Shown here piece by piece: positions 1 to 39,666 of a DNA stretch of 64,000 nt; the stretch's first letter is position 1, and every line of letters begins with the position of its first letter. The DNA comes from an uncultured Verrucomicrobiae bacterium (GTDB lineage: Bacteria > Verrucomicrobiota > Verrucomicrobiia > Limisphaerales > Palsa-1400), in NCBI GenBank assembly GCA_963764165.1, contig CAVXRD010000001.1:1536001-1600000 (forward strand), read 5' to 3'. The translations under genes were made by a program, and so were the position numbers. The notes under the pieces are model-generated. The model was not told the DNA's origin and made no database searches. It worked only from the letters and a program-made list of their open reading frames with translations.

Positions 1-594
1 GCTGGAAAAACAACATTGCTCAAGACACTTGTAGCAGCCGACCTGGGAACCAGAATGCAATACATCCCGGAGCATTCAGACTTGTTAACTTGCATTGCAG
101 AGGCGCCGGAGCACTCATATTTCGACTCGCAGAAAAAGTTTCTCTTAACGGAGAGAATCCGACTGACAATGGTGACTGGATCATCAGCCACATTGCTTCT
201 GATGGACCGCTCCTTTGTTTCCATTTTCGCTCATACGATTGCGACAAAGCCGCGTTCTAGTGCTGCTAGGCACAGTGTTCTCGAAGAGCTGTTTGAACTC
301 ATCAAATCGAGGCTGTTAAGCATTCCCCACTGTTTTGTGTTCCTTGACGTGGCTTACTCAACTAGCCTTAGTCGCTTTTACACCAATCGATGGGAGAAAG
401 GCACCGACCTCGCTTTGATCGCTAAGCCCTACTTCCACCGCCTGCGCCGGATATACACTCGTTGGATTTCTTTGGTGGAAGGGCACTTGTTATTGTCCCC
501 AGGCAGATTTGATATCTCTCGGCTAACTCTGCGATATTACAATCCGGGAGCGTTGATTCAGGCGTTGCAGACAATCTCCCAGGAGGAGGATTAG
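1..594 (+). CDS. Deoxynucleoside/thymidylate kinase-like P-loop kinase (5' end outside window)
   Basis: Frame from base 1 reads AGKTTLLK (end of Walker A). Also LLMDRSFVSIFAH (DRxxxS motif) and VFLDVAYSTSLSR, typical of dTMP/dNK kinases. Confidence 0.7.
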   Translation, partial: AGKTTLLKTLVAADLGTRMQYIPEHSDLLTCIAEAPEHSYFDSQKKFLLTERIRLTMVTGSSATLLLMDRSFVSIFAHTIATKPRSSAARHSVLEELFELIKSRLLSIPHCFVFLDVAYSTSLSRFYTNRWEKGTDLALIAKPYFHRLRRIYTRWISLVEGHLLLSPGRFDISRLTLRYYNPGALIQALQTISQEED

Positions 595-595
595 T

Positions 596-1540
596 ATGCC
601 CATCGAGATAAGTTGCGGCTATCGGATACACGTCAATAGCATCGATATGAACGGCTTCAATCTGCGCGTGTGTGGTGGAATCGGATTTTGCCTAGATGAA
701 CCTCGCCTCCACGTTGGTGTGGAGAATTATGATTATGATCTGGTTCCCGAGGATTTGCTGGAGGAATTGATGCCTCTTTGTGCGGAATTTCGACTACGTT
801 ATGGACGTGCGGACTTTTATCGCGTTTTTTGCCATGATCGCATTCATCGGCATAAGGGTTTGGGCAGCAGCACGCTTCTTAAGCTTTGCGTTCTAAGGGG
901 CTTGCATGAGTTAGCAGACTTGCCATTCACGAAGAGCGTTGCTACATCATTCCGCCTTGGACTAACATCCGGCATTGGGTTTAACGCGTTCTTCGACGGT
1001 GGGTTTTTAGTGGACGGTGGCTATTTGGCCTATTCCGGTCACAAGACTCTCAATGGAGAGGTTGCTGGACACCGCGCTCCTATTCTCTTCCGGGCGGACT
1101 TTCCAAGTGATTGGCTGGTTCATGTCGCCATTCCAAATAAACACAAATCTTTGGACGCGGATGATGAGGTGGCTTTTTTTAATCGAATCACTCCGATTCC
1201 AAATGAGGAGGTGCATATGATTGCCTATAATGTCCTTATGGGAGTGATGCCAAGTCTGATGGAGGGCGACTTGGACGCATTTCTAAAAAGTTTGATCGCT
1301 GTGGTTAGCTGTGGCACTAAACGACACGAAACAGCCCTGCATGCGACGCTTTGCCAGAGTCTAATGACTCGTATGAACGCGGATTTCGGATTTGTGGCTG
1401 TATCTTCGTTAGGGCCTAGTGTGTATGCCATCTCTAACCAATGTATTGATATCTCCTCATATCAGCGCGACTTCACTGACTTCATTTTTAGTTCTTCTCG
1501 CGTCTCTTGTGCCGGGCACAGAATGGTAAGAATTCCATAG
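596..1540 (+). CDS. beta-ribofuranosylaminobenzene 5'-phosphate (beta-RFAP) synthase-like, GHMP family
   Basis: RIHVNSIDMNG..GGIGFCLDEP, HKGLGSST, TSGIGFNAFFDGGFLVDGG and VSSLGPSVY match RFAP synthase family motifs. Confidence 0.8.
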   Translation: MPIEISCGYRIHVNSIDMNGFNLRVCGGIGFCLDEPRLHVGVENYDYDLVPEDLLEELMPLCAEFRLRYGRADFYRVFCHDRIHRHKGLGSSTLLKLCVLRGLHELADLPFTKSVATSFRLGLTSGIGFNAFFDGGFLVDGGYLAYSGHKTLNGEVAGHRAPILFRADFPSDWLVHVAIPNKHKSLDADDEVAFFNRITPIPNEEVHMIAYNVLMGVMPSLMEGDLDAFLKSLIAVVSCGTKRHETALHATLCQSLMTRMNADFGFVAVSSLGPSVYAISNQCIDISSYQRDFTDFIFSSSRVSCAGHRMVRIP

Positions 1541-1566
1541 TAAGTTACCTTAAGACTTAAAGTCTT

Positions 1567-2022
1567 ATGCAAATCCGCTCGATCGCTATTTGTCTTTTTC
1601 GTAATGGGTCGCGAATTCTTGTAATGGAAGGGCAGGACTCCTCGAACGGAAGATTTTATTATCGCCCGTTGGGCGGCGAGATTGAGCCTGGTGAGAGTAG
1701 TGCACAAGCATTGATGCGCGAAATGCGCGAAGAACTCAATGCCACTGTCGCCGGATTACGCTTAGTGCATGTGATCGAGAACTTGTTCGCGGTTGAGGGT
1801 GTATGTGGGCATCAGATCGTTTTCGTATACGATGGGCATTTCACCGACTCTCGCCTATACGAAAACGAATGCTTAATGTTTCGAGAAGGCGCAGGTCCGG
1901 AACGAACGGCCGTTTGGAAGGAGTTAAGTGAGTTCGATTTTAGGCACCGTCTTGTTCCCGCTGGTTTATTAGACCTCATAGTAAACAGAAGTTCCGATCC
2001 GTTTTTGAGTAGTGGCTTTTGA
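1567..2022 (+). CDS. NUDIX hydrolase
   Basis: Nudix box GGEIEPGESSAQALMREMREEL. Confidence 0.9.
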   Translation: MQIRSIAICLFRNGSRILVMEGQDSSNGRFYYRPLGGEIEPGESSAQALMREMREELNATVAGLRLVHVIENLFAVEGVCGHQIVFVYDGHFTDSRLYENECLMFREGAGPERTAVWKELSEFDFRHRLVPAGLLDLIVNRSSDPFLSSGF

Positions 2023-2109
2023 TGCAAAGTTTGGTTTGCGTCGCATATGTCGGTCAACGCCACGCGAACCATTGGCGAAAAAGCACCTTTGAGCCGAAGA
2101 ATCGCTTTC

Positions 2110-2559
2110 TCACCAAAGAAATTGGTCCCTATGGAGACGTTGCATAAGCCCCTTGAAGTCGAATCCCAAATCAAGCTCAAGCACCTCGTGGTAGTAGAAC
2201 CAACCGTAATCGGCGATTTCAGAATGTTGGACTTCGATGGCACCCTTACATATTCCTAGAAACTTGAAATAATTGCTCTCCGGCGTGAGTTGAGTTTCGT
2301 AGAGTGATTGGGGCTTAAAGGTAAGATTCACCTCCTCTAAGAACTCACGAGTGACCGTTTCCAAAGGAGTCTCGTTGAGAAGGCCCTTTCCGCCAGGACA
2401 AACCCAACAACCCTTGAATGGACTTTGGGCCCGTTTCACCAAAAGAATTCTCCCTTTAACGATGACTATTCCTGCACAAGAATGTCGTCTGACATCGTTT
2501 TCCTTCCCCAAGTTCTCGCAGTCAACGGGGACTGAACTGAAGGTTTTCTCAGAAGGCAT
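2110..2559 (-). CDS. NUDIX hydrolase (MutT-like); start uncertain (2559 or 2622)
   Basis: Nudix box PGGKGLLNETPLETVTREFLEEV. Confidence 0.85.
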   Translation of the reverse strand: MPSEKTFSSVPVDCENLGKENDVRRHSCAGIVIVKGRILLVKRAQSPFKGCWVCPGGKGLLNETPLETVTREFLEEVNLTFKPQSLYETQLTPESNYFKFLGICKGAIEVQHSEIADYGWFYYHEVLELDLGFDFKGLMQRLHRDQFLW

Positions 2560-8232: not shown

Positions 8233-9006
8233 TCACCTCACGCTATCGACTGGAGGATCGAGTTTCTTTTCACCGGCATCATGCGGTTTTCGGGCACGAG
8301 GGGCGTTTTCCGTGCTTTCAAAAAGCCGTTCAGCATATGCAAAGGCGGGAATTTTCACCCATGCGGGCTTAATCGTGAAAATCCACCAATAAAGAAGCAG
8401 TGCGTTCGCTGCCGTGCAGACCCATGGAGCGATTTTTGGGTCGCCAGAATGAACAAACCAGATGCCCGCACCACCACTCACGACGATACCAAGGAGCGTA
8501 ACCATAACTCCCGTCGAGCGCAAAGCAAACAGATTTCGGCAAAACCCGTATTGGACGTTTTCCTTATGTAACAAAGGATACTTTTTAGTGTCGCGGGTTT
8601 TGCCGATTTGGAGCTTCACTGCCGCGTTATAAATATCATCCGCGCCGGAGGGATTAGAAACTTCTTCCTCTGCCGTAGGAAATGCCTTTCCCAGCAGCTT
8701 GTGAAGACTTTTGTGCCAACGTTCCCGCATAACCGGATTTGCTGGCCCTGAATGGCGGAGGAATTGTGTAGTTGGCGCACCGCCCCAAGATTGCCAAAGA
8801 CCGGGTTCAATTCTTTTTCCGAAATTGCGAGCAAGTATTGCGAGGAAAAATGTGCCGCCAGCCGTTGAAAAAAGCGTCCAGAGAGCCGACTGCCATTTGA
8901 CGCCGGGACCCGTCCATGCGAACACACCAATTGCAGCAGGTAGCAAGGTCAAAAGCGCCGGTTGAACCCGCGCCCGCAAGCTGTAATAGTCAAACAAATT
9001 AGTCAT
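8233..9006 (-). CDS. Multi-pass (about 4 TM) membrane protein, coupled to MBL hydrolase
   Basis: Two hydrophobic pairs flanking a soluble domain (ENVQYGFCRNL); 8-nt overlap with the MBL gene. Confidence 0.75.
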   Translation of the reverse strand: MTNLFDYYSLRARVQPALLTLLPAAIGVFAWTGPGVKWQSALWTLFSTAGGTFFLAILARNFGKRIEPGLWQSWGGAPTTQFLRHSGPANPVMRERWHKSLHKLLGKAFPTAEEEVSNPSGADDIYNAAVKLQIGKTRDTKKYPLLHKENVQYGFCRNLFALRSTGVMVTLLGIVVSGGAGIWFVHSGDPKIAPWVCTAANALLLYWWIFTIKPAWVKIPAFAYAERLFESTENAPRARKPHDAGEKKLDPPVDSVR

Positions 9007-10096
9007 CGTTTTCTACTTGGGTATAAAATTGTATTGGTTCGATTGACCCGTATGTGCTTCTGGCAGGTGCTTGATCGCGCAGCCAAATATTGATCCCGGC
9101 TGTGGCGTGGACGGATGCTCCACGGCGGCGGAGGGCGTTGGTCACCTTTTTGTGGGGATGTTTCGGCGCGCCATCTTTTGCTGCGGAGATATAAGCATAC
9201 CAATCTTTTGCATCCAGTCCTCGGACGCCTCCAAATAGACGATTGAGCACTGAGGGGCCGAGATTCCGACGGCTTCCGTGGTGTGGCACATCGAAGAAAT
9301 ATAGTCCCGCGAGCGAAATCCCGTTTGCGTCTACAAATGCAATCGCCGCCTGTAGCGCGGGAACGCCTGCATCGCCTGTGAACAGGAACTTCTTGTCATC
9401 CACATCAAGGGTGAAAATCACGGATGAATTATTCTCGGAACTTGTCGCGTCTGGAGCAGGCTCTTGGAGCTTTTCCGTGAACCAATTCTCCGAGACCCAA
9501 TTCGCAACCGTGGCTCCCAACGCCCTGAGTGCCTCCCCAAGACGTGCAGAAGTAGTTTGGATTTCAGTTCCTGGCATAAATCTGAATCCCGCGAGCATTT
9601 CTTGGTAAAAATCTTTTGTCGGCCCAATGACGCGTAGTCCAAGCCCGCTTGCACCGGCAAAAGGCTCGATAACGGGGATCCCCTTTTCCTTCGCGAGCTG
9701 TTCAATCTCTCGCACAGTGGAGAGATTCCGTTTGGCATTTTCCCGTATCGAATCGGTCGTCACGCGACCGTCATCCAAGAATTCTTTGACATCGCTTGAA
9801 TGATTCCAAGGCAAGTGCATCGCCAATTGTTTCACTTTCAGCCCCTCCAAGATGTTGCGCATTCCCGATGCGTGATCCGTATCGGCATGCGACAATATTG
9901 CAATGTCCACTGTGTCGGTCCCATAATACGTTTTGACATGCTTCACCAGTGCATCGCCGGATTCCAATGTTCCACCGTCGATTGTGACGACGGTCTGCTC
10001 ATTGCGTTGACCAAAGAGGTTGCCGTAGCGCAGACATACCGCATGTGCGCTTCGCTCACCATCGCCCGCCGCTAAATAATCGATTTCGTATCCCAT
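8999..10096 (-). CDS. Metallo-beta-lactamase-fold hydrolase (ComEC/Rec2-like nuclease domain, no channel domain)
   Basis: IDGG, SHADTDH, ENNSS, FTGDAG, VPHHGS, HP motifs. Confidence 0.88.
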   Translation of the reverse strand: MGYEIDYLAAGDGERSAHAVCLRYGNLFGQRNEQTVVTIDGGTLESGDALVKHVKTYYGTDTVDIAILSHADTDHASGMRNILEGLKVKQLAMHLPWNHSSDVKEFLDDGRVTTDSIRENAKRNLSTVREIEQLAKEKGIPVIEPFAGASGLGLRVIGPTKDFYQEMLAGFRFMPGTEIQTTSARLGEALRALGATVANWVSENWFTEKLQEPAPDATSSENNSSVIFTLDVDDKKFLFTGDAGVPALQAAIAFVDANGISLAGLYFFDVPHHGSRRNLGPSVLNRLFGGVRGLDAKDWYAYISAAKDGAPKHPHKKVTNALRRRGASVHATAGINIWLRDQAPARSTYGSIEPIQFYTQVENDD

Positions 10097-10132: not shown

Positions 10133-12619
10133 ATGCAAAATGCAATAAAAATCGATGAGCGCCTCCGTTTACTTCGTTCAAAGTTGAACCTGAGCCAAGA
10201 ACAATTGGCGTCACGTCTAAATATCTCATTTGCAACGGTTAATCGCTGGGAAAGCGGCAAGGTGAAGCCGCAAAAGGCTCAACTTGACTCACTCGATAAA
10301 CTCATGGGGGAAGCTGGCATTCAGGATGGAGATAAGGGCAATGTTGCGGAGGGTGATGGAGCTTCTGCGCAGCAGCCCCGCCGTCGTCGAGGGGTTGCAA
10401 AAAGCGCCGTGCTCGGAAACCGGGGCATGGAGCAGATGCTTTGGGACGCGGCATGCTCGATACGCGGCGAAAAGGACGCGCCGAAATTCAAAGATTATTT
10501 GCTCCCGCTGCTTTTCATCAAACGCCTGTCGGACGTTTTCGACGACGAAACGCAACGGCTCGCCGATCAGTTTGGCGACCGCGCCACCGCCCTTGAAGTC
10601 CTGGAAGACGATCACAAACTGGTCCGCTTTTACATCCCGCCCGAGGCACGCTGGCCGGTGGTGAGCGGACGCGAGGCGTTCAAATGGCCAAAGGACAAAA
10701 CGCCGAAGGGTCTTGGCGAACAACTCACCACGACCATTCGCGGCATCGTGAAACACAATCCGTCGCTCGCGGGCGTGATTGATATTGTGGATTTCAACGA
10801 AACCCGAAACGGCGAGCGCGAGATTAGCGACTCCGCGTTAAAGGGTATCATCGAAACTTTCTCTGACGCCCGCTACCGGCTTGGCTTGCACGACGTAGAA
10901 CCTGATTTTCTCGGACGCTGTTACGAATACCTTTTACGGAAGTTCGCCGAAGGCCAGGGGCAAAGCGCCGGAGAGTTTTTCACACCCACCGAAGTCGGCT
11001 TTCTAATCGCCGAAATAATGCGGCCACGACCCGGCGAGGAATGTTACGACTACGCTTGCGGCTCGTTTGGTCTGCTTGTCAAATTGCAAATCATCTGTCG
11101 CCGCCTCGATCCCCTTTCAAAAGTCCCGCTTAAGCTTTATGGCCAAGAACGAGAGGCATCTAGTTATGCCATCGCTTGTATGAACAGAATAATTCATGAT
11201 ATGGAGGGCCAAGTGGCGCGCGGTGACTCTATGCGCAATCCCAAATTCAAAGACAGCGATACCCGGCTGAAACAGTTTGATATTGTGGTCGCAAATCCCA
11301 TGTGGAACCAATCGTTTGATGCCGACGTTTTCGAAAACGACCCTTTTGAACGCTTCGAGGAGCAAGGCGGTGTCACCACCACCAAGGGTGATTGGGCTTG
11401 GTTACAACACACGCTCGCGGCGTTGAAAAATGCGGGGCGAGCAGCCGTCGTCATGGATACAGGGGCAGTCACGCGCGGAAGCGGCAGTAAGAACGAGGAC
11501 AAGGAGCGCAACATACGCAAATGGTTTGTGGACCACGACCTGATTGATGGCGTTATACTATTACCGGACAACCTCTTTTATAACATGAATGCGGCAGGGG
11601 TGATAATTATATTGCGTAAGCAAAAGCCAAAAGAACGAAAAGGCCGCATTTTTCTCGTGGATGCAAGCAGCCAGCGCCAGAAAGGCAATCCCAAAAACTT
11701 CATTCCAGAATCAAGCATCAAAACGATTGCAACAGCTTTTCATAAAGGAGAGGCAGTGGATGGATTTCTTTCAGTGATCACAAATCAGGAAGCATCCAAC
11801 AATGACTACAATCTTCATCCTTCACGCTTTTGCTCTACGACTGCAAAGAACACACACCATAGCGCAGATGCACTTAGAAAGGAGTTAGATGCCCTTGAAC
11901 TTGAGGCGACTTCAATTGAAAAAGGTTTAGCCAGAATCTTGAGTAAATTTAACGTTTCGATGGATATCGATGAAGCTCCCTTGCCAGATGATTGGCAGTC
12001 TTCTGTGCTCGAAACATTTTATCGCATCACAAAGAAGCCGAAGGGCCTTGCTCTGGACGGAATCGACACAATTCCGTTTATTCCAATGGAATTGGTTCCT
12101 GCCAAGGGGACTCATAAAACTCCATTTAATCTCAAAAAACGAAAGGATATCACGAGCGGCACATACTTTGAAAAAGGTGACGTTTTGCTCTCGAAAATCA
12201 CGCCTTCCTTTGAAAATGGAAAACAAGGCATAGCCGATGAAATTCCGAGTGCTTTCGGCTACGCGACCACCGAAGTGATACCCATTCACTCACTACCCAA
12301 TGTGAGCAACAAGTATTTTCTGTTCTATTGGCTCTTACAGCAATCGGCGCGCTCTTGGCTTGAGGCTAGAATGGAAGGAAGCACCGGGCGGCAACGTGTT
12401 CAGGAACATTCAGTTAAGGAGATTCCATTCAGTAAACCTCCTTTTGAGGAAGAAAAGAAGATTGCCGCCGTGCTAAGAAAAATTCAGCGCATGATTGAAA
12501 TTAGAGAACGACAGACTTTTCTTCTGCGAGAGCTGTTCAAGGGTTCATTGAATATCCTCATGACTGGTCGCGTGCGGATAAACGATCTCGACATTGATAC
12601 AAAGGATATCGAGTCATGA
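10133..12619 (+). CDS. hsdM: Fusion of XRE HTH, type I HsdM methyltransferase and single-TRD HsdS
   Basis: N-terminal [40 protein letters not shown]-terminal [28 protein letters not shown] (one TRD plus coiled region). Confidence 0.9.
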
Positions 12620-15537
12620 GCACATTACTCGCAAACGAGGCCAGCACGGTTCAGTTTCCGCTCGTAAAGCACGCGGCGGAAATCGGCTGGACTGTCATAT
12701 CAGACGCCGAGGCACTTCGTCGGCGCGGCGGCGAAGCCGGTTTGTTTTTCGACAAAGAACTTGAAGACGCCTTGCTCCGCCTTAATCCCGACATCATCAC
12801 GGCGGAGAACGTGCAGTCTGTCATTCAACGCATGGAGAGCGTGCCGAACACCATTGAGGGCAACCGCGAAATTCTCGAATGGTTGCGCGGCAACAAAACG
12901 GTGTTCGTCGAAAGCGAGAAAAGGCATCGCAACGTTACGCTTTTAGATGTCAAAAACATTGACCGTAATGTTTTTCAAGTCACCTACGAATGGACATTCC
13001 GTGCGTTGAACAAAAAAGGCAATCGTGCGGACGTGATGTTTCTTATCAACGGAGTTCCAGTTGCCATAGTGGAAAATAAAAACCCAAAATTGCCGGATGC
13101 GACCGAACGCGCCATCAAACAACTTCGCCGCTACCAACTGGAAACGCCGGAATTGCTCACCATGTCCCAAGTGTTCAACGTGACGCACTTGATCGAATAC
13201 CTTTACGGCGTCACTTGGAATTATTCGCGCAAGGGCATCTTTGAATGGAAAACCAAGCGCGAAGAAACTTTCCGCAGCGCGGTTCAAGGATTCTTTGACC
13301 GGGGCATCTTTCTGAAAATGCTTGGCGAATGGATTTTATTTTTTCTCAAAGACGATGAATTGCAGAAAACTGTTTTGCGCCAGCACCAGACGCGCGCCGC
13401 TGAAAAAGTTGTGGAGCGCTGTGCCGACCCGAAAAAGAAAACTGGCCTTGTCTGGCATACACAAGGTTCAGGAAAAACTTTTACGCTCATCACGGCGGCA
13501 CGGCTCATTTTGGAAGACAAGGAACGCTTCCCCGGCGCGACGGTGATGCTTGTGGTTGACCGCAACGAATTGGAAGGCCAGTTGTCAGGCTGGGTCGAGC
13601 GACTTGTTGGTGAGGTTCACGGACGCGACATCAAAATTAAATACGCCGACAGCCGCGCAAGGTTGCAGGAATTGTTAGATCAAGATTTTCGCGGCCTTAT
13701 CATTTCGATGATTCACAAGTTTGACGAAATCCGAAAGGATTCATGCAAGCGTTCAGACTTTTTTGTGCTGATAGACGAAGCGCACCGTTCGACTAGCGGT
13801 GATCTTGGCAATTTCCTAATGGGCGCATTACCGAACGCGACGCTGATCGGTTTTACCGGCACGCCGATTGATAGAACGGCCCACGGCAAAGGCACATTTA
13901 AAGTTTTCGGCAAGGAGGACGACAAGGGTTATCTCGACAAGTATTCCATCCGAGAATCCATTGCAGACGGAACGACAGTTATGTTGCGTCACACGTTGGC
14001 GCGAAGTGAAATTCAGCTTCCCGAAGATTTGCTCGAAAAGGAATTCTTGAACATCGTCGAGAGCGAAGGCGTCAGCGACGTGAACGAATTGAACCGCATC
14101 CTTGACCGTGCGGTAAATTTGAAAGCGTTTTTGAAAGCCGACGACCGCGTAGAGAAAGTGGCACAATTCGTCGCAAAACACTTCAAGGAAAACGTCGAGC
14201 CGCTGGGCTACAAAGCATTCCTTGTAGCAGTGGATCGTGAAGCGTGCGCCCTTTACAAAAAGGCACTCGACAAGTATCTACCCCGAGAATACTCGATACC
14301 GATTTATACGAAGAATGCAGCGGACTCCATTGACCGCCCTCTTGTGGCACAAATGCAGTTGGACGAAACCGCCGAGAAGAAAGCCCGCAAAGCGTTTCCG
14401 AAGCCCGACCAATTGCCGAAAATTTTCATCGTCACCGACAAACTTCTCACCGGCTACGACGCGCCCGTTTTGTATTGTATGTATCTCGACAAGCCAATGC
14501 GCGATCACGTCTTACTTCAAGCCGTGGCGCGTGTGAACCGGCCTTACGAGGACGACAAAGGTGTTAAAAAGCCGTGCGGCCTCATCGTTGATTTCATCGG
14601 TATCTTGAAAGAATTGAACAAGGCGCTGGCGTTTGATTCTGACGAAGTGAGGGGTGTAATTGAAGACCTCGACATTTTGCTCGCTCGTTTCAAAGAGTTG
14701 ATGGAAGCCGCTGGCAAATCATACTTGGAAGCCGCTGGCACAAACGGCGGAAGGGACGTGAAGATCGAGAAACTGCTTTACGATATTTTCCTAGACAAGC
14801 AGAAGCGGCAGGAGTTCGTCGAGTTTTTCAAGGAGGTTGAAATGCTTTACGAAATCCTTTCGCCTGATTCCGCGTTGCGTGATTACATAGAAAATTACAA
14901 TAGGCTCGCTGACCTTTACGTCATGCTGAAAAACGCCTATGGCAAGAAAACGACGTTTTACGCAGACATCGCCCACAAAACTGAAATGCTTGTCCGCGAA
15001 AATGCCGCATCTCACGGTCTCGCCAAGATGACCAAGACGGTGGAATTTGACGCAGCGGCATTGCAGGCGTTGAAAGATAAAAAGGGTTCAGACAACGGCA
15101 AGGTAATCAATCTCATAAAAAGCCTCACTAAAAGTGCAACCGACCGAGGCGAGAAAGAGCCATATCTCATTTCGATTGCCGAGCGCGCCGAGTCTGTAAT
15201 GGGTGCGTTGGAAGATCGTCAGGTTTCCACGGCAGACGCGCTTTCGAGAATCGAAGGATTGATGCGGGAAAAACTGGCGGCTGAAAAAGTCCGTAAGGAA
15301 AGTGGGCTTGACCCCGACACGTTTGAGATTTTTTGGTTTTTGCAGCAGCAAGATGTCAAAGACGCTCTCCTTATTGCAAAGGAAATCAATGCGGTATATT
15401 CGCGCTTCCCCAATTCCGCCAGCAATGCGGACGAGCAGCGACAATTGAAAGCCGAGATTTACAAATCATTGCTCCGCGTCGTCAGCGGCAAGCGCATGGT
15501 TGATCTTGCGGAAGAGATTTTACGTCTTAAACAATAA
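12616..15537 (+). CDS. hsdR: Type I restriction endonuclease subunit R
   Basis: [13 protein letters not shown] nuclease, [36 protein letters not shown]. Confidence 0.95.
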
Positions 15538-15884
15538 TGAAATCACGACACCAAAACGCTGTGCCGTTGGATCAACCTTTCAAAACAAAGGTGCATTCAT
15601 GGGCATTGAGAGTTCGTGTGAAGCCGACGCAAGTCCGCATTCAGAAAATGACTCGCAAATGGGCGTCATGTTCGACTCGCGGATGGATCAGCTTTTCATA
15701 CGACCTTTTGCTTGAGCCGCAACCCTTTCAAGATTATGTGGTCGTTCACGAACTGCTTCACTTGAAAGTCCGCAATCATGGCAAGCTTTTCAAAAGTTTG
15801 CTTTCAGCATATCTACCAGGTTGGAAAAAATTTAGCCTTGAATGTCGCGCTACAAGACCAGTAGGTTCAGGAGCGGTGAAATAA
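15537..15884 (+). CDS. Short YgjP/DUF45 (M48-like) zinc metallopeptidase
   Basis: RKWASCS, YVVVHELLH, NHGKLF; usual neighbour of hsdR. Confidence 0.85.
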   Translation: MKSRHQNAVPLDQPFKTKVHSWALRVRVKPTQVRIQKMTRKWASCSTRGWISFSYDLLLEPQPFQDYVVVHELLHLKVRNHGKLFKSLLSAYLPGWKKFSLECRATRPVGSGAVK

Positions 15885-15901
15885 ACTCACCAAACAAAAT
15901 C

Positions 15902-18589
15902 ATGCCAATTACCTTTAATGAAATTGATGTGGTAGATAACGGCGCTCAGTTTTCCAATGCCGATCTGCACGTTCACTCCTTCGGCGCTTCCCACGATGTC
16001 AAAGATTCCGCGATGACTGTGGAAGCCATCATTGATGAAGCCGTAAAAATTGGCATTCAAATTTTGGCTATCACCGACCACAACACAGATGCAAACACGC
16101 AGAAGAGCATTGATTATGCGCAAAAATATACTGGCCAGATTCTCGTGCTGCCCGGTGTTGAAATTACGACCGCACATGGCCATCTTCTTGTTTATTTTTC
16201 CCCGATTAAAGCCGCGAATGTCCGTAATTTATTAGCAAAGATAAATGTTGTCGGCAACCTCGGCGATCAAAACAGTCACACTGCCATGTCCATGGCTGAT
16301 GTGATCAAAGAAGCTGAGCTTTTGGGCGGCATCTGTGTCGCCGCGCACATCGATAGAGTAAAAACTGGCTTTGAAATGCAGATTCAAGGTTATCCCAATT
16401 GGAAGAAAGACATCATGCTGAGTCCTGGGCTTTACGGCTTGGAATTCGATATCCCGACAAATCTTGGTTGGTATTCAGATACGGACGAGCCGACCACAAA
16501 CGGCACGGAACGGAAGCAAATCGCCCGGACCAGGGCAAATGTGCCGCAAATCATGGGGCGTCCCCACTTGGCTCGCATTCAAGGGTCTGACGCACATACG
16601 CTCAAGATTTTCACCACAGGTCGAAGTGGCAAAATTCTTACGCGATTTAAACTCACCGAGCTAAATTACGACGCGTTTAGAACCGCTCTATCTGACCCGG
16701 AAGCTCGCGTCCGGGCCGTGGCAACAATTCCACGCACATTGCCTCGCATTCTAGGAATGAAGATAGCCGGGGGGTTTCTGAATGGAGAAACCTACCATTT
16801 TAGTGATAATTTGAACTGCTTCATCGGCGGCCGTGGAACCGGAAAATCTTCTGCGCTCCAAACGCTTGCGCACGGCCTGGGGCTTAACGACGAAATGAAT
16901 ACGCACGATAACTGCCCTGGGTCCGTAGTTGTATATTGTGAAGACACGAATGGAATCCGTTATCGGTATGAACGAATGCAGGGATCAAAGCCCGTTGTAA
17001 GGGCAAAAAATGACCTAGATATTAACGATGTTCCGATTGATGCTTTTCGAGTTGAATATTATCAGCAAGGTGAGTTGGCGGAAGTTGCAAAAAACCCTCT
17101 TAAAAACCCAGGCTTGCTTCAACAATTTTTGGACAGACACCTATTATTATCTGATCTCCTCGGCAAAGAGGAACAGTTGGTCACAGCCCTTGAACAAAAC
17201 AGTGCGCAGCTTATTCCACTTGAGGTCAGCGCCGGCCAACTCACTGGGAAAAAACAGATTCTCGCAGATATAAACAAGAAATTGTCTATCGCAGAGGCCG
17301 GAAAATTGAAGGACATAGCGGCCGAACAAAGTTGTCTGGCCAATGAAAAGAATTTTGCAATATCACTCGAACAAATCGGAAATGAGTATGCGCGCGGTTT
17401 AACCCTTTCAAATTTTGCCCGCGATTATGGAACAATCGAGGCCACCGTTGCCCCGCTGACAAATTCGCCCGCCTGTAACGCCACACTCCTCAAAATTAAG
17501 AATGCAATCGAAGTGGTGAACACATTCTTAGATGAAAAGGAAAAGGATATTAAGGCAAAATTTAACAGTGCATCAAAAGAGATTACGGCTGCATTGGCCG
17601 AGTTGAAACAGATCCATAGCCAGCTGGAAACACAATTGAACGTCAAAATAAAAGAACTCCAGCAAAAAGGTCTGTCAGGAAGTATTACCGAGCTACAGAA
17701 TTTTCTCACCCAAAAGGGTGCAGTAACGCTCGAAATCAATAAAATCAACACCCAGGCACCACAGTTGAAACAGTTGAGGCAGGATAGACAGCAATATTTG
17801 ACCGATCTCGAAAATCTCCGGGAGGAAATTATGAAACGGAGAAAAGGACAGCTAAATTCGATCAATCAAAATCTCGCCGCGACCATTGAGGATTACACGG
17901 TCTTCGTGCATTACGAGCCGAGTGGAATAATCGACGCGTTCAAGAAGTTTATTCTCGAGAAGATGCAAGGAACGTATTTTCAAGAAGACGCAGCAGAACA
18001 ATTTTGTTCCCATATTACGCCACCAGCACTTGCAAAATTTGTGCTCGATGAGAACTTTACTGAAATTAGTAATGTTACCGGCGTCACCAAAGAATGGGCG
18101 GGACAGATTTGCAAAAAGCTCCGATTTTATCAACAACTTCACGCGTTGGAAGTTATGTGGAAAACGCCATGTCCCATTATTTCTGTGAAAACGAAAGGCG
18201 CGAAGCCGAAAAGTATCCCGGTTAATCAACTTTCGGACGGCCAGAAACACACCATTATGCTGACCATCGCCATGCTGGCAGAATCAAACATTCCATTGGT
18301 GATTGATCAACCGGAAGATGATTTGGATAATGCTTTTATTTTTTCGGCCGTTGTCAAAGCACTCCGTTCGATTAAGGAGCGAAGGCAGGTCATACTCGTT
18401 ACACACAATGCTAACATAGCTGTTTTGGGGGACGCCGAATTACTTTTGCCAATGCGACGAAACGGTGATGGAGGAACCGCCTTCGATCTTGGTTCAATTG
18501 ATAAAACCGAAACAAAAAAGACAGTTTTGAATATTCTTGAAGGTGGAGATTTAGCCTTCCGGCGCAGACGTGAAATTTACGGTTACTAA
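15902..18589 (+). CDS. PHP phosphoesterase + ABC/SMC-like ATPase fusion (Ppl/TrlF-like anti-phage protein)
   Basis: DLHVHS, ITDHN, GVEI, AH, GSDAH (PHP); GGRGTGKS, LSDGQ, IDQPEDDLDN, VTHNAN (ATPase). Confidence 0.88.
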   Translation: MPITFNEIDVVDNGAQFSNADLHVHSFGASHDVKDSAMTVEAIIDEAVKIGIQILAITDHNTDANTQKSIDYAQKYTGQILVLPGVEITTAHGHLLVYFSPIKAANVRNLLAKINVVGNLGDQNSHTAMSMADVIKEAELLGGICVAAHIDRVKTGFEMQIQGYPNWKKDIMLSPGLYGLEFDIPTNLGWYSDTDEPTTNGTERKQIARTRANVPQIMGRPHLARIQGSDAHTLKIFTTGRSGKILTRFKLTELNYDAFRTALSDPEARVRAVATIPRTLPRILGMKIAGGFLNGETYHFSDNLNCFIGGRGTGKSSALQTLAHGLGLNDEMNTHDNCPGSVVVYCEDTNGIRYRYERMQGSKPVVRAKNDLDINDVPIDAFRVEYYQQGELAEVAKNPLKNPGLLQQFLDRHLLLSDLLGKEEQLVTALEQNSAQLIPLEVSAGQLTGKKQILADINKKLSIAEAGKLKDIAAEQSCLANEKNFAISLEQIGNEYARGLTLSNFARDYGTIEATVAPLTNSPACNATLLKIKNAIEVVNTFLDEKEKDIKAKFNSASKEITAALAELKQIHSQLETQLNVKIKELQQKGLSGSITELQNFLTQKGAVTLEINKINTQAPQLKQLRQDRQQYLTDLENLREEIMKRRKGQLNSINQNLAATIEDYTVFVHYEPSGIIDAFKKFILEKMQGTYFQEDAAEQFCSHITPPALAKFVLDENFTEISNVTGVTKEWAGQICKKLRFYQQLHALEVMWKTPCPIISVKTKGAKPKSIPVNQLSDGQKHTIMLTIAMLAESNIPLVIDQPEDDLDNAFIFSAVVKALRSIKERRQVILVTHNANIAVLGDAELLLPMRRNGDGGTAFDLGSIDKTETKKTVLNILEGGDLAFRRRREIYGY

Positions 18590-29598: not shown

Positions 29599-29961
29599 TT
29601 AACGCCCTGAGAGTAATGCGGCGCATCCTTTGAAGATCAAAATTAACACGGCTGCATAGAGAAAGAGCGCAATAACCCCTCCACATCCGTTGCTGTCATT
29701 TTGAGACGGAGCCGAAGATTCGACGTGGACTTTGCCCTCCACGTTTTGAAGAACAGTCATTTGTTTGCAATTGGGGCACTCAACAAATTTTCCGTCCAGT
29801 TCGGCTGGAAATTCAAGTTTCTGGCGGCAGCAAACACAAAAACATTTCAAGATTTCCCTTCCGCGTCTCGGAAAGGAAAGGGCGCGAACCCGTTCGCACC
29901 ATTGCGAGGCACCTGAGAGGGCCTTGAGATGAATGCGCACGAGCCGCGCCCAGTCGGGCAC
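29599..29961 (-). CDS. Zn-ribbon + C-terminal TM protein, IS passenger; start probably internal
   Basis: CVCCRQKLEFP..ECPNC, similar to CTHCSQKIEFP..ECPSC of its neighbour; hydrophobic C-terminus. Confidence 0.55.
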   Translation of the reverse strand: MPDWARLVRIHLKALSGASQWCERVRALSFPRRGREILKCFCVCCRQKLEFPAELDGKFVECPNCKQMTVLQNVEGKVHVESSAPSQNDSNGCGGVIALFLYAAVLILIFKGCAALLSGR

Positions 29962-30187
29962 GTGCTCGGTGCGGGGTCATCTCGGAAAATTCTCAGGTTT
30001 TCGCAATTCCCCTACCGCTAACGCTAAATTATTAAAACTGCCCAAAGCATACCCCGCTTCAAATCCGCCAATCAATTTGAAAGTTTTAGAGAAAATGAAA
30101 AACCCACTTGCCATTCCCGATGATCGGAAACAACCTCTTTTTTTCAAACAACTGCCGCTAAGACAGCGGCCAACAAAAAGGGCTAAA

Positions 30188-31006
30188 ATGACCATTCTGA
30201 TTGGCATCACATGCAAAGATGGAATTGTCCTGGCCAGTGACAGCCAAGCGACTGTGGGGGGCGAATTTGCGCTACCAACATCAAAAATAACCAAAGTCAA
30301 TTTTCAGTTGAATGAGGCGCTTATAGCCTGCGCCGGAGATATTCACCTAGCTAATCGCGTTACAGAAATGATTCAGGATTCCGCATTGAGATCGGAGTTA
30401 AATTCGCCGCGTCATCTTGCCGATATGGCAGAGGCCGAAATACGAAAATTCCGCGATATGATGGTGGACGACGCCCAGAAGCAGTCTCTCGAAGAGGGTG
30501 GATTTATCTTAATGCTCGCCCACTTCGGTTGCTTTGATCCTAGTTTGTATTTGACGAACATATTGGGAATAGCAAGCAAGCCAGAATCATATTATGCCGC
30601 TGCTGGAAGTGGGTCCGTTCTTGCTGAATGCTTTTTTGCGGAATTTTTAGACAGGCCCTCCACGCTGCCAGAATCGGTAGCTGCTGCGATATATATAATT
30701 GACAAAGTGAAAAGGTATGATCCGAGTTGCGGTGGCCAAACTAAAGTCAAAGTCATTGGCAGGGAGAAAAATCCGTACCCAGCGCACGATAACCCTATGA
30801 CGCGCTATATCGGCAAGGTTTACGATTACCCGCAGTCCGACATTGACACTTTTGAACGGGAAATTGCTGAGATTGAAACATCCGAAAAACCTGGAAGGAT
30901 AAAGAGGCTCTCTGGCGTGTTGTCCGAAATCGGAAAGGTTCGATGGGAGGCATATTTGAAGTCCGTAAAAGCCACCATTTCAACCAATGAACAAACTGAG
31001 CACTGA
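30188..31006 (+). CDS. Proteasome beta-type (Ntn) protease-like protein, IS passenger
   Basis: M-T-ILIGITCKDGIVLASDSQAT (Thr1), SKI, ACAGD, AAGSGS, D..CGG. Confidence 0.8.
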   Translation: MTILIGITCKDGIVLASDSQATVGGEFALPTSKITKVNFQLNEALIACAGDIHLANRVTEMIQDSALRSELNSPRHLADMAEAEIRKFRDMMVDDAQKQSLEEGGFILMLAHFGCFDPSLYLTNILGIASKPESYYAAAGSGSVLAECFFAEFLDRPSTLPESVAAAIYIIDKVKRYDPSCGGQTKVKVIGREKNPYPAHDNPMTRYIGKVYDYPQSDIDTFEREIAEIETSEKPGRIKRLSGVLSEIGKVRWEAYLKSVKATISTNEQTEH

Positions 31007-36574: not shown

Positions 36575-38077
36575 ATGAAGGAAAATAGTGCCTTGAAAAA
36601 ACGTGTCGGCATATGGATTCGTGTTTCCACCGAAGATCAAGCCAGGGGCGAAAGCCCGCAACACCACGAGCAACGCGCCCGCGAATACGCCAAGTTCAAC
36701 GACTGGACAGTGGTTGAAGTGTATGACTTGGCCGGGGTGTCAGGCAAAACCGTCATGGAAAATGCCGAAGCCAAGCGGATGATGTCCGACCTTAAGCGCG
36801 GCCACATCAACGGCCTGATCTTTTCCAAGCTCGCCCGCCTTGCCCGAAACACAAAGGAGCTTTTGGAATTTGCCGAGTTGTTCCGTCAGCACAGCGTGGA
36901 CATGATCTCCTTGCAGGAGAAAATCGACACATCATCCCCCGCCGGACGCCTTTTCTACACGATGATCGCGGCAATGGCGCAATGGGAGCGAGAGGAGATC
37001 GCCGACCGTGTTAAAGCCTCGATTAAAATCAGGGCAAAACTTGGCAAGAGTTTGGGCGGTGCCGCGCCTTTCGGCTATCAGTGGGAGAACAACAAATTGG
37101 CCGTGCATCCCGTCGAATCTCCCGTCCGCAAGCTCATGTATGAGCTTTTTGCCAAAAACAAGCGCATGAAGGGCGTTGCGCGGCTTCTTAATGAATCGGG
37201 CTACCGCACGAGGAACGGCAGCAAATTCAGCGATACGACAGTTTTGAGGCTGCTTCAAGACACCACGGCAAAGGGGTTGTATCGCTCAAATCACACCTAC
37301 CGTGACGGCTCCGGCAAACTCCTTCCCAAACCAGAAGACGAATGGGTTTACAGCCCCGTCACTGCGATTGTGTCCGAATCCTTGTGGAAAGAGTGCAACG
37401 ATGCTTTGGGAGCGCGAAAGGCGCAGAAGCCGCTTGGACGGAAGCCTGTGCATTTGTTCGCCGGATTGCTGCATTGCGGTTGCGGCCAAAAGATGTATGT
37501 CTTTTCCCGCTCCCCCAAATACGTCTGCCCGGAGTGCAGGAACAAAATAACGGTCGAAGACATGGAGGGGGTTTTTCACGACGAATTACATGATTTCTTC
37601 GTGTCCCAGGACAAAATTAAAGGGCATCTGGCGAACGCAAACCAAAACCTTGCCGACAAAAAAGTCAGGCTTGAGGCGCATACCCGGCAGATTGAAAAAG
37701 TTCGCACCGAAATGCGCAAAACATACCAACTCTATCAAGAAGACCAGATTACCCCGGAGGGCTTTGGGAAAGTGTATCGCCCGCTTGAAGATCAGGAACG
37801 CGCCCTGACAGCCGAACTTCCAAAGCTCCAAGCCGAAGTTGACGCAATCGAAATGCACCAGATTTCCGCCGAAGAAGTGCTCGCGGAGGCGACTGGACTA
37901 CACCGGAAGTGGCCTCATTTCGGCCAAGAGGAAAAGCGGAGAATCATCGAAAGTATCGTCGAGAAGGTCACTCTTTCGGGAGACACAATTGATATAACAT
38001 GGTCATACTTAACCTCTTCTGAAGAACTCACAAAAAGGCAACGCAACGTGTCGGGTTCATCGCGGCCACCAGCATGA
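36575..38077 (+). CDS. Large serine recombinase 2 (integrase of the comM island)
   Basis: [29 protein letters not shown], coiled-coil; 3' end runs into comM sequence. Confidence 0.95.
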
Positions 38078-39104
38078 ATTCGGCGGGAAACGTCATCGTG
38101 CCTGCGGCTCGCGAAATGGTGACGCGGCCTTCTTCAATCGGCTGGCGCATGGTTTCCAAAACGCTGCGTTTGAATTCCGGCAATTCGTCCAGGAACAGCA
38201 CGCCATGATGCGCGAGCGAAATTTCGCCCGGCGTGGGATTGATGTTGCCACCCAGCAGGCCCGCGTCGCTGGCCGTGTGATGCGGCGTGCGAAATGGCCG
38301 GCGCGTGACCAGCGCCTGCTTCGGTTTGAGCAGCCCGACGATGCTGTGAATCTTCGTCGTCTCCAGCGCTTCCTCCAGCGTCAACGGCGGCAAGATTGTG
38401 GTGAGCCGTTTGGCCAGCATGGATTTGCCGGTGCCCGGCGGCCCGATCAAAAGAACGTTATGTCCGCCCGCCGCCGCGATCTCCAGCGCGCGCTTGACGG
38501 ACTCCTGGCCCTTGACTTCCGCCATGTCAAAATCGTCCTCGAACGATTGGCCGAAGATCTTCTCCAAATCAACTTTGGCGGGCTCAATTTTAATTTCCCC
38601 TTCCAAAAATCCTACCGCCTCGCGCAAATTTTCAACGGGAATAACCTCCAGTCCTTCAACCACCGCCGCCTCCGCCGCATTGTCCACTCCAACGATGAGG
38701 CCCTTCAACTTCTGCGCCCGGGCCTCCCATGCGATTGACAGAACGCCTTTGACCGGTCGCACTTGGCCTGTTAGCGCCAATTCACCAACCATCGCATAGT
38801 GATCCAGCTCCGACGACATGAGTTGATCGCTCGCCGCGAGCATTCCGATCGCAATGGGCAAATCAAAACTCGGCCCTTCTTTTCTGACGTCGGCGGGCGC
38901 GAGATTAATAGTCGTCTTGCCCATGGGAAATTTGAACCCGGAATTGGTAAGCGCCGTGCTGACGCGATCCCGCGATTCCTTCACTGCCGCATCGGGCAGC
39001 CCGACAATCACCACCAACGTATCACCCCAGCCGGAATTCACCTCCACCTCGACGGGGAAGGCTTCAATTCCATTGACAGCGGCGGATAAAACGCGAGCCA
39101 GCAT
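38028..39104 (-). pseudogene. comM: comM/YifB Mg-chelatase-like ATPase, 5' part, interrupted by the island
   Basis: [50 protein letters not shown] then abrupt stop; C-terminal third missing. Confidence 0.92.
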
Positions 39105-39222
39105 GGGCGGATGTTGGGGCAATGAAGCCGTTACGGCAATGCGGTTTTTGCGGGATTTGACAGACTGCGTCAGAGCCATCGATTCCCAAACAGCGCAAAC
39201 GTGGGGACTGACGCCGACCGGA

Positions 39223-39666
39223 TTAATGTTCCCGATTTCCGAGCCGCAGTTCCAATTCTTCAATTTTGTCCTGCCATTCCTCAGGGTCATATTCGTCCCG
39301 GAGTTGCGAATCTGACTTGATGAGGGCGAGCGCAGCTTGGGCAACAGGGACAAGTTCCTCAGCGGGCGAATCCCGATGAGCCGCAATCCAAGCTGTGGCG
39401 CCTATAGACAGTTTCGCCGGAGGACGGCCGCACAAAGCGCTTACAATCTCGACCGCTGCGATGGCTCTTTGGCAGTCGCTAATGGTCAAACGATCCGGGA
39501 GCCGGCCCAGGAATTTTCCGAACCGGGTCGGTTGTTTGGTCCCGCCGTGGTCGATGACGCGTTGGAGTTCACCGCGCAGGGTTACGCCAGCCACACCCTC
39601 ATTCAGGTCGTCAACAAAATCCAACGCTGGATCGTTTTGAAAACTACCGTCTCCCCAACTACCCAT
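39223..39666 (-). CDS. DUF4259 domain protein
   Basis: [32 protein letters not shown]. Confidence 0.8.

Follow-up and report, generated by a model that had tools for sequence, protein, structure and literature searches.

The window analysed here (the whole 64,000-nucleotide stretch of DNA from an uncultured Verrucomicrobiae bacterium, C1:1536001–1600000, where C1 is contig CAVXRD010000001.1) opens in the 3′ half of a larger operon, two further cassette genes of which lie just upstream, and we propose, tentatively and with somewhat less than even confidence, that this cassette makes a C-linked unnatural nucleotide inside the cell and phosphorylates it toward a nucleoside triphosphate (NTP) analogue, possibly one with anti-phage activity. 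The gene content and order, the conservation in a second genome (a Prolixibacteraceae locus), the location on mobile DNA, the ForT fold of the central enzyme and the pattern of its active-site residues were observed directly, and the chemistry and the defence role are what we infer. The unit is less than 5 kb in size and consists, all on one strand, of a Tmk-like kinase, a B12 radical S-adenosylmethionine (SAM) enzyme, a deoxynucleoside kinase (dNK)-type kinase, an enzyme of the RFAP synthase family (the RFAP enzyme) and a Nudix protein, Nudix-1. The genes are as follows (coordinates without a prefix are those of the window).

C1:1532492–1533451, plus strand: possible XRE-type regulator with a helix-turn-helix (HTH), no similar open reading frame (ORF) at the Prolixibacteraceae locus
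C1:1533518–1534300, plus strand: Tmk-like (thymidylate-kinase-like) P-loop gene, up to 260 aa, below family cut-offs
C1:1534314–1535963, plus strand: B12-binding radical-SAM gene, 549 aa, with CxxxCxxC and K73-x-N75 motifs
Inferred GTG start at C1:1535956, in-window 1–594, plus strand: dNK-type kinase, about 212 aa, recognised by PF01712 and motifs
596–1540, plus strand: RFAP-synthase/ForT-fold GHMP enzyme, 314 aa, TIGR00144, of the ‘RIHxNS’ clade
1567–2022, plus strand: Nudix-1, 151 aa, last co-directional gene, PF00293 at 40.5 bits
2110–2559, minus strand: Nudix-2, 149 aa, convergent, PF00293 at 48.2 bits

The operon begins upstream of the window, which opens inside the dNK-type kinase gene. 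A preliminary description of the window had picked out four ORFs, all of which are present where it placed them, and the tight linkage that it saw between the kinase, the RFAP-synthase-like gene and a Nudix gene is borne out by spacers of 1 nt (dNK to RFAP) and 26 nt (RFAP to Nudix-1); further upstream, the end of the radical-SAM gene and the inferred start of the dNK gene overlap by 8 nt. Its gene set was incomplete, as the B12 radical-SAM gene and the second kinase had been missed, and retrieval of the upstream genes, which it had itself proposed, brought in both of these together with the possible XRE regulator. No base-building gene, transporter or HAD/HD-type phosphatase was seen in either cassette copy, and promoter and terminator scans gave results at chance level.

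The linkage of kinase and Nudix genes recurs in a second phylum. At the Prolixibacteraceae (Bacteroidota) locus four genes stand in the same order (Tmk-like, 59% identity; radical-SAM, 52%; dNK, 43%; RFAP-like, 50%) and repeat both the 8-nt overlap and the 1-nt spacer, with a Nudix fusion directly upstream of this four-gene core. The G+C content (GC) of the genes of this copy is 0.28–0.33 against mostly 0.41–0.48 in their neighbours, and among its immediate neighbours are MobABC, IS1595 and two genes of YhcG-like and SpbK-like TIR type, Gabija being about 9 kb distant; both copies are thus low in GC and on mobile DNA. A scan of GTDB genomes gave two relatives and a metagenome scan four, one of them identical to the Prolixibacteraceae locus, the other four loci belonging to a sister clade (34–38% identity; Paenibacillus and three low-GC metagenome contigs). 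Two of three further dNK homologues match RFAP homologues in both source and length of the longest contig (3512 and 46254 bp), which suggests two more linked cassette copies. Viral contigs gave no match to the RFAP protein or to the radical-SAM profile, phage records gave no match, a plasmid search for more loci gave distant matches (about 20–32% identity among the rows listed), and the ESM Atlas offered no more than generic family names.

The 314-aa protein is the one TIGR00144 (beta-RFAP synthase family) gene of the host genome, which is 97% complete. It passes that family (160.5 bits, cut-off 113.5) but fails the RFAP-synthase equivalog NF040726, that of MptG (162.1 bits, cut-off 328), and three ForT entries are the only PDB sequences that it matches strongly. 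In a quick tree of 68 rows it falls in a 33-row clade (SH-aLRT 99) separate from MptG, for which Azospirillum and Azoarcus genes, verified by their context beside mch/mtd, served as references; in a second quick tree, of 37 clade representatives hand-picked from the 68, its clade holds 19 of the 37 rows (SH-aLRT 98). Both trees are without bootstrap, and the clade is over-sampled as the query alignment was built from it. The preliminary description had proposed a phylogeny against MptG and ForT/PyfQ, and of this the separation from MptG came out as described, but the Mesorhizobium protein that stood in for ForT sits on a long branch and its placement relative to the RFAP clade is weakly supported (65). 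Fusions of about 515 aa that carry RFAP-synthase GHMP domains together with PF01947 (P0190–P0193 and P0195–P0197) were also encountered.

These data bear directly on a further reading, that of a displaced MptG whose RFAP would go into a methanopterin-like cofactor. The protein does resemble MptG, MTH0830 and MJ1427 in its TIGR00144 membership and in keeping five residues of archaeal-type RFAP synthases, His12, Asp17, Arg24, Lys242 and Glu245; two of these, D17 and R24, correspond (mapped by eye from the motif) to D19 and R26 of MTH0830, which are reported to affect p-aminobenzoate binding (PMC6787355), and the host has two chorismate-binding enzymes. It differs in failing the equivalog, in its clade and in the loss of the Arg of the GRG motif. 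Moreover, of the two methanopterin marker families searched, MCH and FTR were each found in 0 of 1 host genome, with positive controls detected; MCH was found in 0 of 2 genomes of named RFAP homologues, the completeness of both being not stated; and no methanopterin genes were found among the genes read upstream, the earlier remark having been that none was in view. Grouping with MptG within a complete upstream tetrahydromethanopterin cluster had been named as the outcome that would speak against the preliminary description, and what was found is a separate clade and no such cluster. On the equivalog, the missing markers and the separate clade we rejected the MptG identity, and regard this explanation as largely refuted and very improbable.

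The AlphaFold model of the RFAP enzyme (predicted local distance difference test, pLDDT, 94) is far nearer in fold to ForT (Foldseek template-modelling (TM) score 0.87–0.89) than to GHMP kinases (0.70 or less), at about 24% sequence identity to ForT. ForT residues were mapped onto the clade by sequence alignment, with their roles taken from PMC8183095 and PMC9832568. The E211A change in ForT is reported to give no product (PMC9832568), and the Glu211 equivalent is kept in 68 of 68 rows and thus in 33 of 33 clade rows; the clade rows likewise keep (ForT numbering) Lys263 (33/33), Arg19 (30/30 ungapped), His99 (32/33) and Thr106 (32/33), and the window enzyme also keeps Thr138 and Ser139. The residues that hold the substrates are another matter. 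Arg135, which contacts the 5′-phosphate of phosphoribosyl pyrophosphate (PRPP) and is reported to be essential for PRPP binding (PMC8183095), is Leu or Ile in 31 of 33 clade rows (Leu121 in the window enzyme) and Arg in all 35 others. Leu24, said to stack on the substrate ring (PMC8183095, PMC9832568), is with Thr23 replaced by Asn/Ser in 30 of 30 ungapped clade rows, position 24 being Leu or Phe in 33 of 33 ungapped others, and the pyrazole-site residues Ser21, Leu24 and Gln266 correspond to His12, Ser15 and Glu245 in the window enzyme. With the bond-forming residues kept and the pocket residues changed, the bond-forming machinery appears intact and both substrate pockets differ, and because Arg135 is lost across the clade plain PRPP chemistry cannot be assumed. 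A Lys or Arg at position 96 is present in 9 of the 10 rows of the window's subclade and in none of the other 21 Arg135-less rows; either Lys96 might compensate for the absent Arg135 or the donor might differ from PRPP.

The radical-SAM protein has a cobalamin domain, a radical-SAM barrel and a helical C-terminal domain, the layout of OxsB. A search of 1.84 billion representatives gave 41 family matches at E ≤ 1e-30. Its Asn75 is present in all 37 rows with residues at the motif, out of the top 43 non-self rows, but in no more than 5 of 100 rows further away, a set from which 6 long rows had been dropped; the KxNF motif was found in 0 of 13 sequences made up of the three other matches from the taxonomic family of the Prolixibacteraceae copy and the best 10 of 40 Bacillota matches. 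Asn75 aligns with Asn186 of OxsB, which is reported to anchor a water beneath the cobalt, a site filled by bulky residues in the methylases TsrM and TokK (PMC9204698). OxsB also leads the PDB matches, with 89 bits by profile (runner-up 47) and a TM of 0.66 by fold (runner-up 0.58). This likeness to OxsB and AlsB (oxetanocin A, albucidin), in domain layout, lower-face Asn and best PDB match, should not be over-read: identity is 14%, the alignment begins at OxsB residue 138, the cassette enzyme is without the N-terminal domain (549 against 744 aa), the same profile scores generic B12 radical-SAM genes with no solved structure at up to 218 bits, and there is no OxsA/AlsA partner, as the cassette has neither an HD hydrolase nor a second radical-SAM gene. 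Enzymes of this class appear to be mostly methylases (PMC9204698, PMC13331322). The host carries B12-dependent mutase family genes, so that cobalamin is plausibly available. The profile matches 0 of 40 relatives at E 1e-40, 4 of 151 genomes in the family of the Prolixibacteraceae copy and 36 of 401 Bacillota genomes. The family with an invariant K-x-N and a His after the cluster motif (P0013–P0055) includes three members that carry Patescibacteria names.

These features allow another explanation, in which the GHMP enzyme no longer does PRPP chemistry and instead serves as kinase, decarboxylase or transferase for some intermediate, while an OxsB-like radical step remodels a normal (deoxy)nucleotide. 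The loss of Arg135 and the Asn/Ser replacement at Thr23/Leu24 would fit such an enzyme, both kinases resemble deoxy-nucleotide families, and the radical-SAM family has the equivalent of Asn186 of OxsB, an enzyme reported to act on dAMP, dADP and dATP (PMC13331322). We nevertheless think it unlikely, as the fold is so much closer to ForT than to any GHMP kinase, the catalytic Glu, Lys263, Arg19, the His99 loop and Thr106 are retained, generic B12 radical-SAM genes outscore OxsB on the family profile and the OxsA-like HD hydrolase is missing from the cassette.

The preliminary description took the in-window kinase for a deoxynucleoside monophosphate (dNMP) kinase, a reading that the full-length protein does not support: it passes the deoxynucleoside-kinase family PF01712 (36.7 bits, cut-off 27, E 5e-9) and its sole PDB match is the deoxynucleoside kinase 8PUU. 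The P-loop (GNVNAGKT), the Glu (PE/GE) and the DRS motif are kept in five of five homologues. We take the Glu of the PE motif to be the base that activates the nucleoside 5′-OH, so that by its motifs this protein is more likely a nucleoside kinase than a dNMP kinase. The Tmk-like protein scores under the cut-offs of its kinase families. As for the two Nudix genes, both are present and the second is convergent, as had been described, but only Nudix-1 resembles the Nudix domain of the Prolixibacteraceae locus (38% identity, E 1e-15); Nudix-2 matches it at E 0.011 only and has no counterpart there, and is probably a bystander outside the cassette core. The Nudix domain of that second copy is preceded by a fused domain of about 105 aa (L003:4268–4585), for which an inorganic pyrophosphatase identity was considered but had no support from Pfam or PDB.

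In the C-nucleotide pathway that we prefer, the ForT-fold enzyme would join a phosphoribosyl-type donor to an aromatic carboxylic acid of the host with release of CO2 and pyrophosphate. As there is no base-building gene in the cassette the acid must come from host metabolism, and as the clade is without Arg135 the donor may be something other than ordinary PRPP. The B12 radical-SAM enzyme would then methylate or rearrange the product or its sugar, the dNK-type kinase would convert nucleoside to nucleoside monophosphate (NMP) and the Tmk-like kinase NMP to the diphosphate, a host kinase would complete the triphosphate, and Nudix-1 would keep the triphosphate level down as long as the cell is uninfected. 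As the host genome yielded no chorismate lyase, a supply of 4-hydroxybenzoate is unproven.

A number of points weigh against this pathway. Besides the loss of Arg135 and the restriction of Lys/Arg96 to the window's subclade, a ForT-type product is already a 5′-monophosphate, so that the need for a nucleoside kinase is not obvious. With 43 rows at 50% clustering against 10 in the RFAP subclade, the radical-SAM family is the larger and may often work without an RFAP gene, the Nudix-1 subfamily may simply be common, and the independent loci read for the cassette number only two. The defence role, too, is suggested only by the neighbourhood, for which there is no background rate, and the closest good defence matches lie 1–9 kb from the cassette copies.

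The same genes might instead form a small natural-product cluster that makes a nucleoside antibiotic for excretion, with biosynthetic kinases and Nudix self-resistance. There are compact precedents in oxetanocin/albucidin and in the 4′-thiothymidine cluster thmABC, which is described as a radical SAM, a kinase and an NTPase that confers resistance (PMC12691670); ForT and PyfQ make excreted C-nucleosides, and a sister-clade gene in Paenibacillus sits with an ABC transporter. Neither cassette copy, however, has a transporter or an HAD/HD-type phosphatase, and the two kinases point to activation within the producing cell, for which reasons we consider excretion distinctly unlikely. Quite improbable, as a complete scheme, is viperin-like immunity, in which the Arg135-less enzyme would make an aryl C-nucleoside from a non-PRPP donor, an OxsB-like step would rebuild the sugar ring, the kinase ladder would yield a triphosphate that blocks phage polymerases and the Nudix protein would be the safety valve. 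The C-nucleotide pathway preferred above has precedents in viperin-linked nucleotide kinases, viperin being reported to modify canonical NTPs (10.1101/2023.09.13.557418), and in thmABC. These systems share with the cassette the logic of a radical-SAM enzyme plus kinase acting through a nucleotide analogue, and thmABC also the nucleotide hydrolase, but they have no ForT-fold enzyme, and the likeness to thmABC is one of gene logic. Viperin itself is not known to have a B12 domain.

The preliminary description held the cassette to be island-borne, and the split comM gene, the low GC and the absence of the radical-SAM profile from the 40 relatives all agree with this. The N-terminal part of comM lies at window 38031–39386 and the C-terminal part at about C1:1514336–1514800; GC is 0.46–0.49 in the cassette genes, 0.513 in the insertion and 0.563–0.575 in the host contigs. 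A 12-bp motif is present at both ends of the insertion in inverted orientation, with a third copy at C1:1531177, 1.3 kb before the XRE gene, and each left copy sits at the start of a similar HTH ORF. The pattern is consistent with stacked serine-recombinase insertions in a composite element, but the motif also occurs at four other places in the genome and alone proves little. Two serine recombinases are encoded on the insertion alongside type I restriction-modification and further defence-like genes; its features in and around the window are these.

About C1:1514800–1574040, in-window 1–38040, no strand assigned: insertion of about 59.2 kb splitting comM, GC 0.513
8233–10096, minus strand: PDC-M48B-like metallo-hydrolase (E 2e-86) with a partner gene, defence-like
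10133–15537, plus strand: fused HTH-HsdM-HsdS plus HsdR (type I restriction-modification), defence-like
15842–18589, plus strand: Ppl-like PHP-ATPase, defence-like

A proteasome-subunit-like gene (PF00227) also lies within the insertion, at window 29933–31006. The cassette itself matches one PADLOC candidate, PDC-M51, weakly: the adjacent radical-SAM and Tmk-like genes match M51A (E 5e-9, 189 residues) and M51B (E 7e-7), probably at superfamily level. At E 1e-60 the PDC-M51 profiles gave no match in 101 genomes including the host, with the controls also silent, and no paper naming PDC-M51 was found in an open-access literature search.

The restriction-modification genes on the same insertion raise the further idea of a cassette for the salvage or detoxification of a nucleoside analogue from outside, or one that provides a modified nucleotide with which the element marks its own DNA. 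Kinases for nucleosides and NMPs and a Nudix protein are all of salvage and sanitising type, and a DNA methylase and a HAM1 protein form part of another RFAP-like cassette. A ForT-fold bond-former and a B12 radical-SAM enzyme, on the other hand, suit synthesis better than clean-up, and no polymerase, transglycosylase or nuclease partner is found inside either copy; we therefore judge this idea improbable as well.

Other gene clusters with RFAP-like enzymes were seen in the course of this work. The sister clade, of about 20 rows of Arg135-less RFAP-like enzymes, belongs to a different cluster, found at L004:7968–16828 (Paenibacillus forsythiae), L006:5567–13148 and L008:7459–15612. The three loci with downstream sequence have a CysRS-like ligase, two or three radical-SAM genes (one of B12 type) and an APH-like kinase, to which either a 5′-nucleotidase-like HAD gene or an ABC transporter (the latter in Paenibacillus) is added; families were scanned mainly for L004 and partly for L006, with L008 assigned by ORF likeness. 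This cluster is a candidate undescribed C-nucleoside pathway. Within the order of the host the RFAP profile matches 2 of 401 genomes, the host and one other, in which the gene belongs to another type of cassette and Arg135 is kept. A four-gene cassette of a D12-type DNA methylase, a small membrane protein, an RFAP-like enzyme with Arg135 kept and a HAM1-kinase fusion occurs in three distant bacteria, at L010:3167–7579 (Rhizobium plasmid), L015:2954–7644 (Cupriavidus) and L032 (genome G804). Finally, on the Mesorhizobium plasmid NZ_AP023260 (L014:3495–10871) a close ForT homologue (294 bits) stands with a convergent Nudix gene and purC and purH paralogues, so that this legume symbiont has a cluster like those for formycin or pyrazofurin.

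Set beside ForT and PyfQ (PrfE), the enzymes of formycin and pyrazofurin, the window enzyme is alike in fold (TM 0.88), catalytic residues and a role outside methanopterin synthesis, and differs at Arg135 (Leu), Leu24 (Ser), Ser21 (His) and Gln266 (Glu); unlike the Mesorhizobium homologue beside purC/purH, neither cassette locus has pyrazole-building or purine-like tailoring genes. The uses described for the RFAP-synthase family, in the parts of PMC8724604 and 10.1101/728154 relied on here, are methanopterin and pyrazole C-nucleosides, and the supplements of the latter could list more ForT-like clusters; our open-access literature search turned up no description of the clade or of this set of genes. 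The cassette is real, rare and mobile, and apparently represents an undescribed variant among ForT-type nucleotide-analogue pathways, in which a ForT-fold clade is paired with a B12 radical-SAM family sharing the unusual cobalamin environment of OxsB and with two kinases. The five-gene unit lends itself to direct cloning, after which both the formation of a new nucleotide and protection against phages can be assayed. The RFAP clade keeps its catalytic machinery but has other residues where the sugar phosphate is held and the ring is stacked, which makes it a concrete candidate both as a biocatalyst for C-nucleoside analogues and as a source of new C-glycosylation chemistry.

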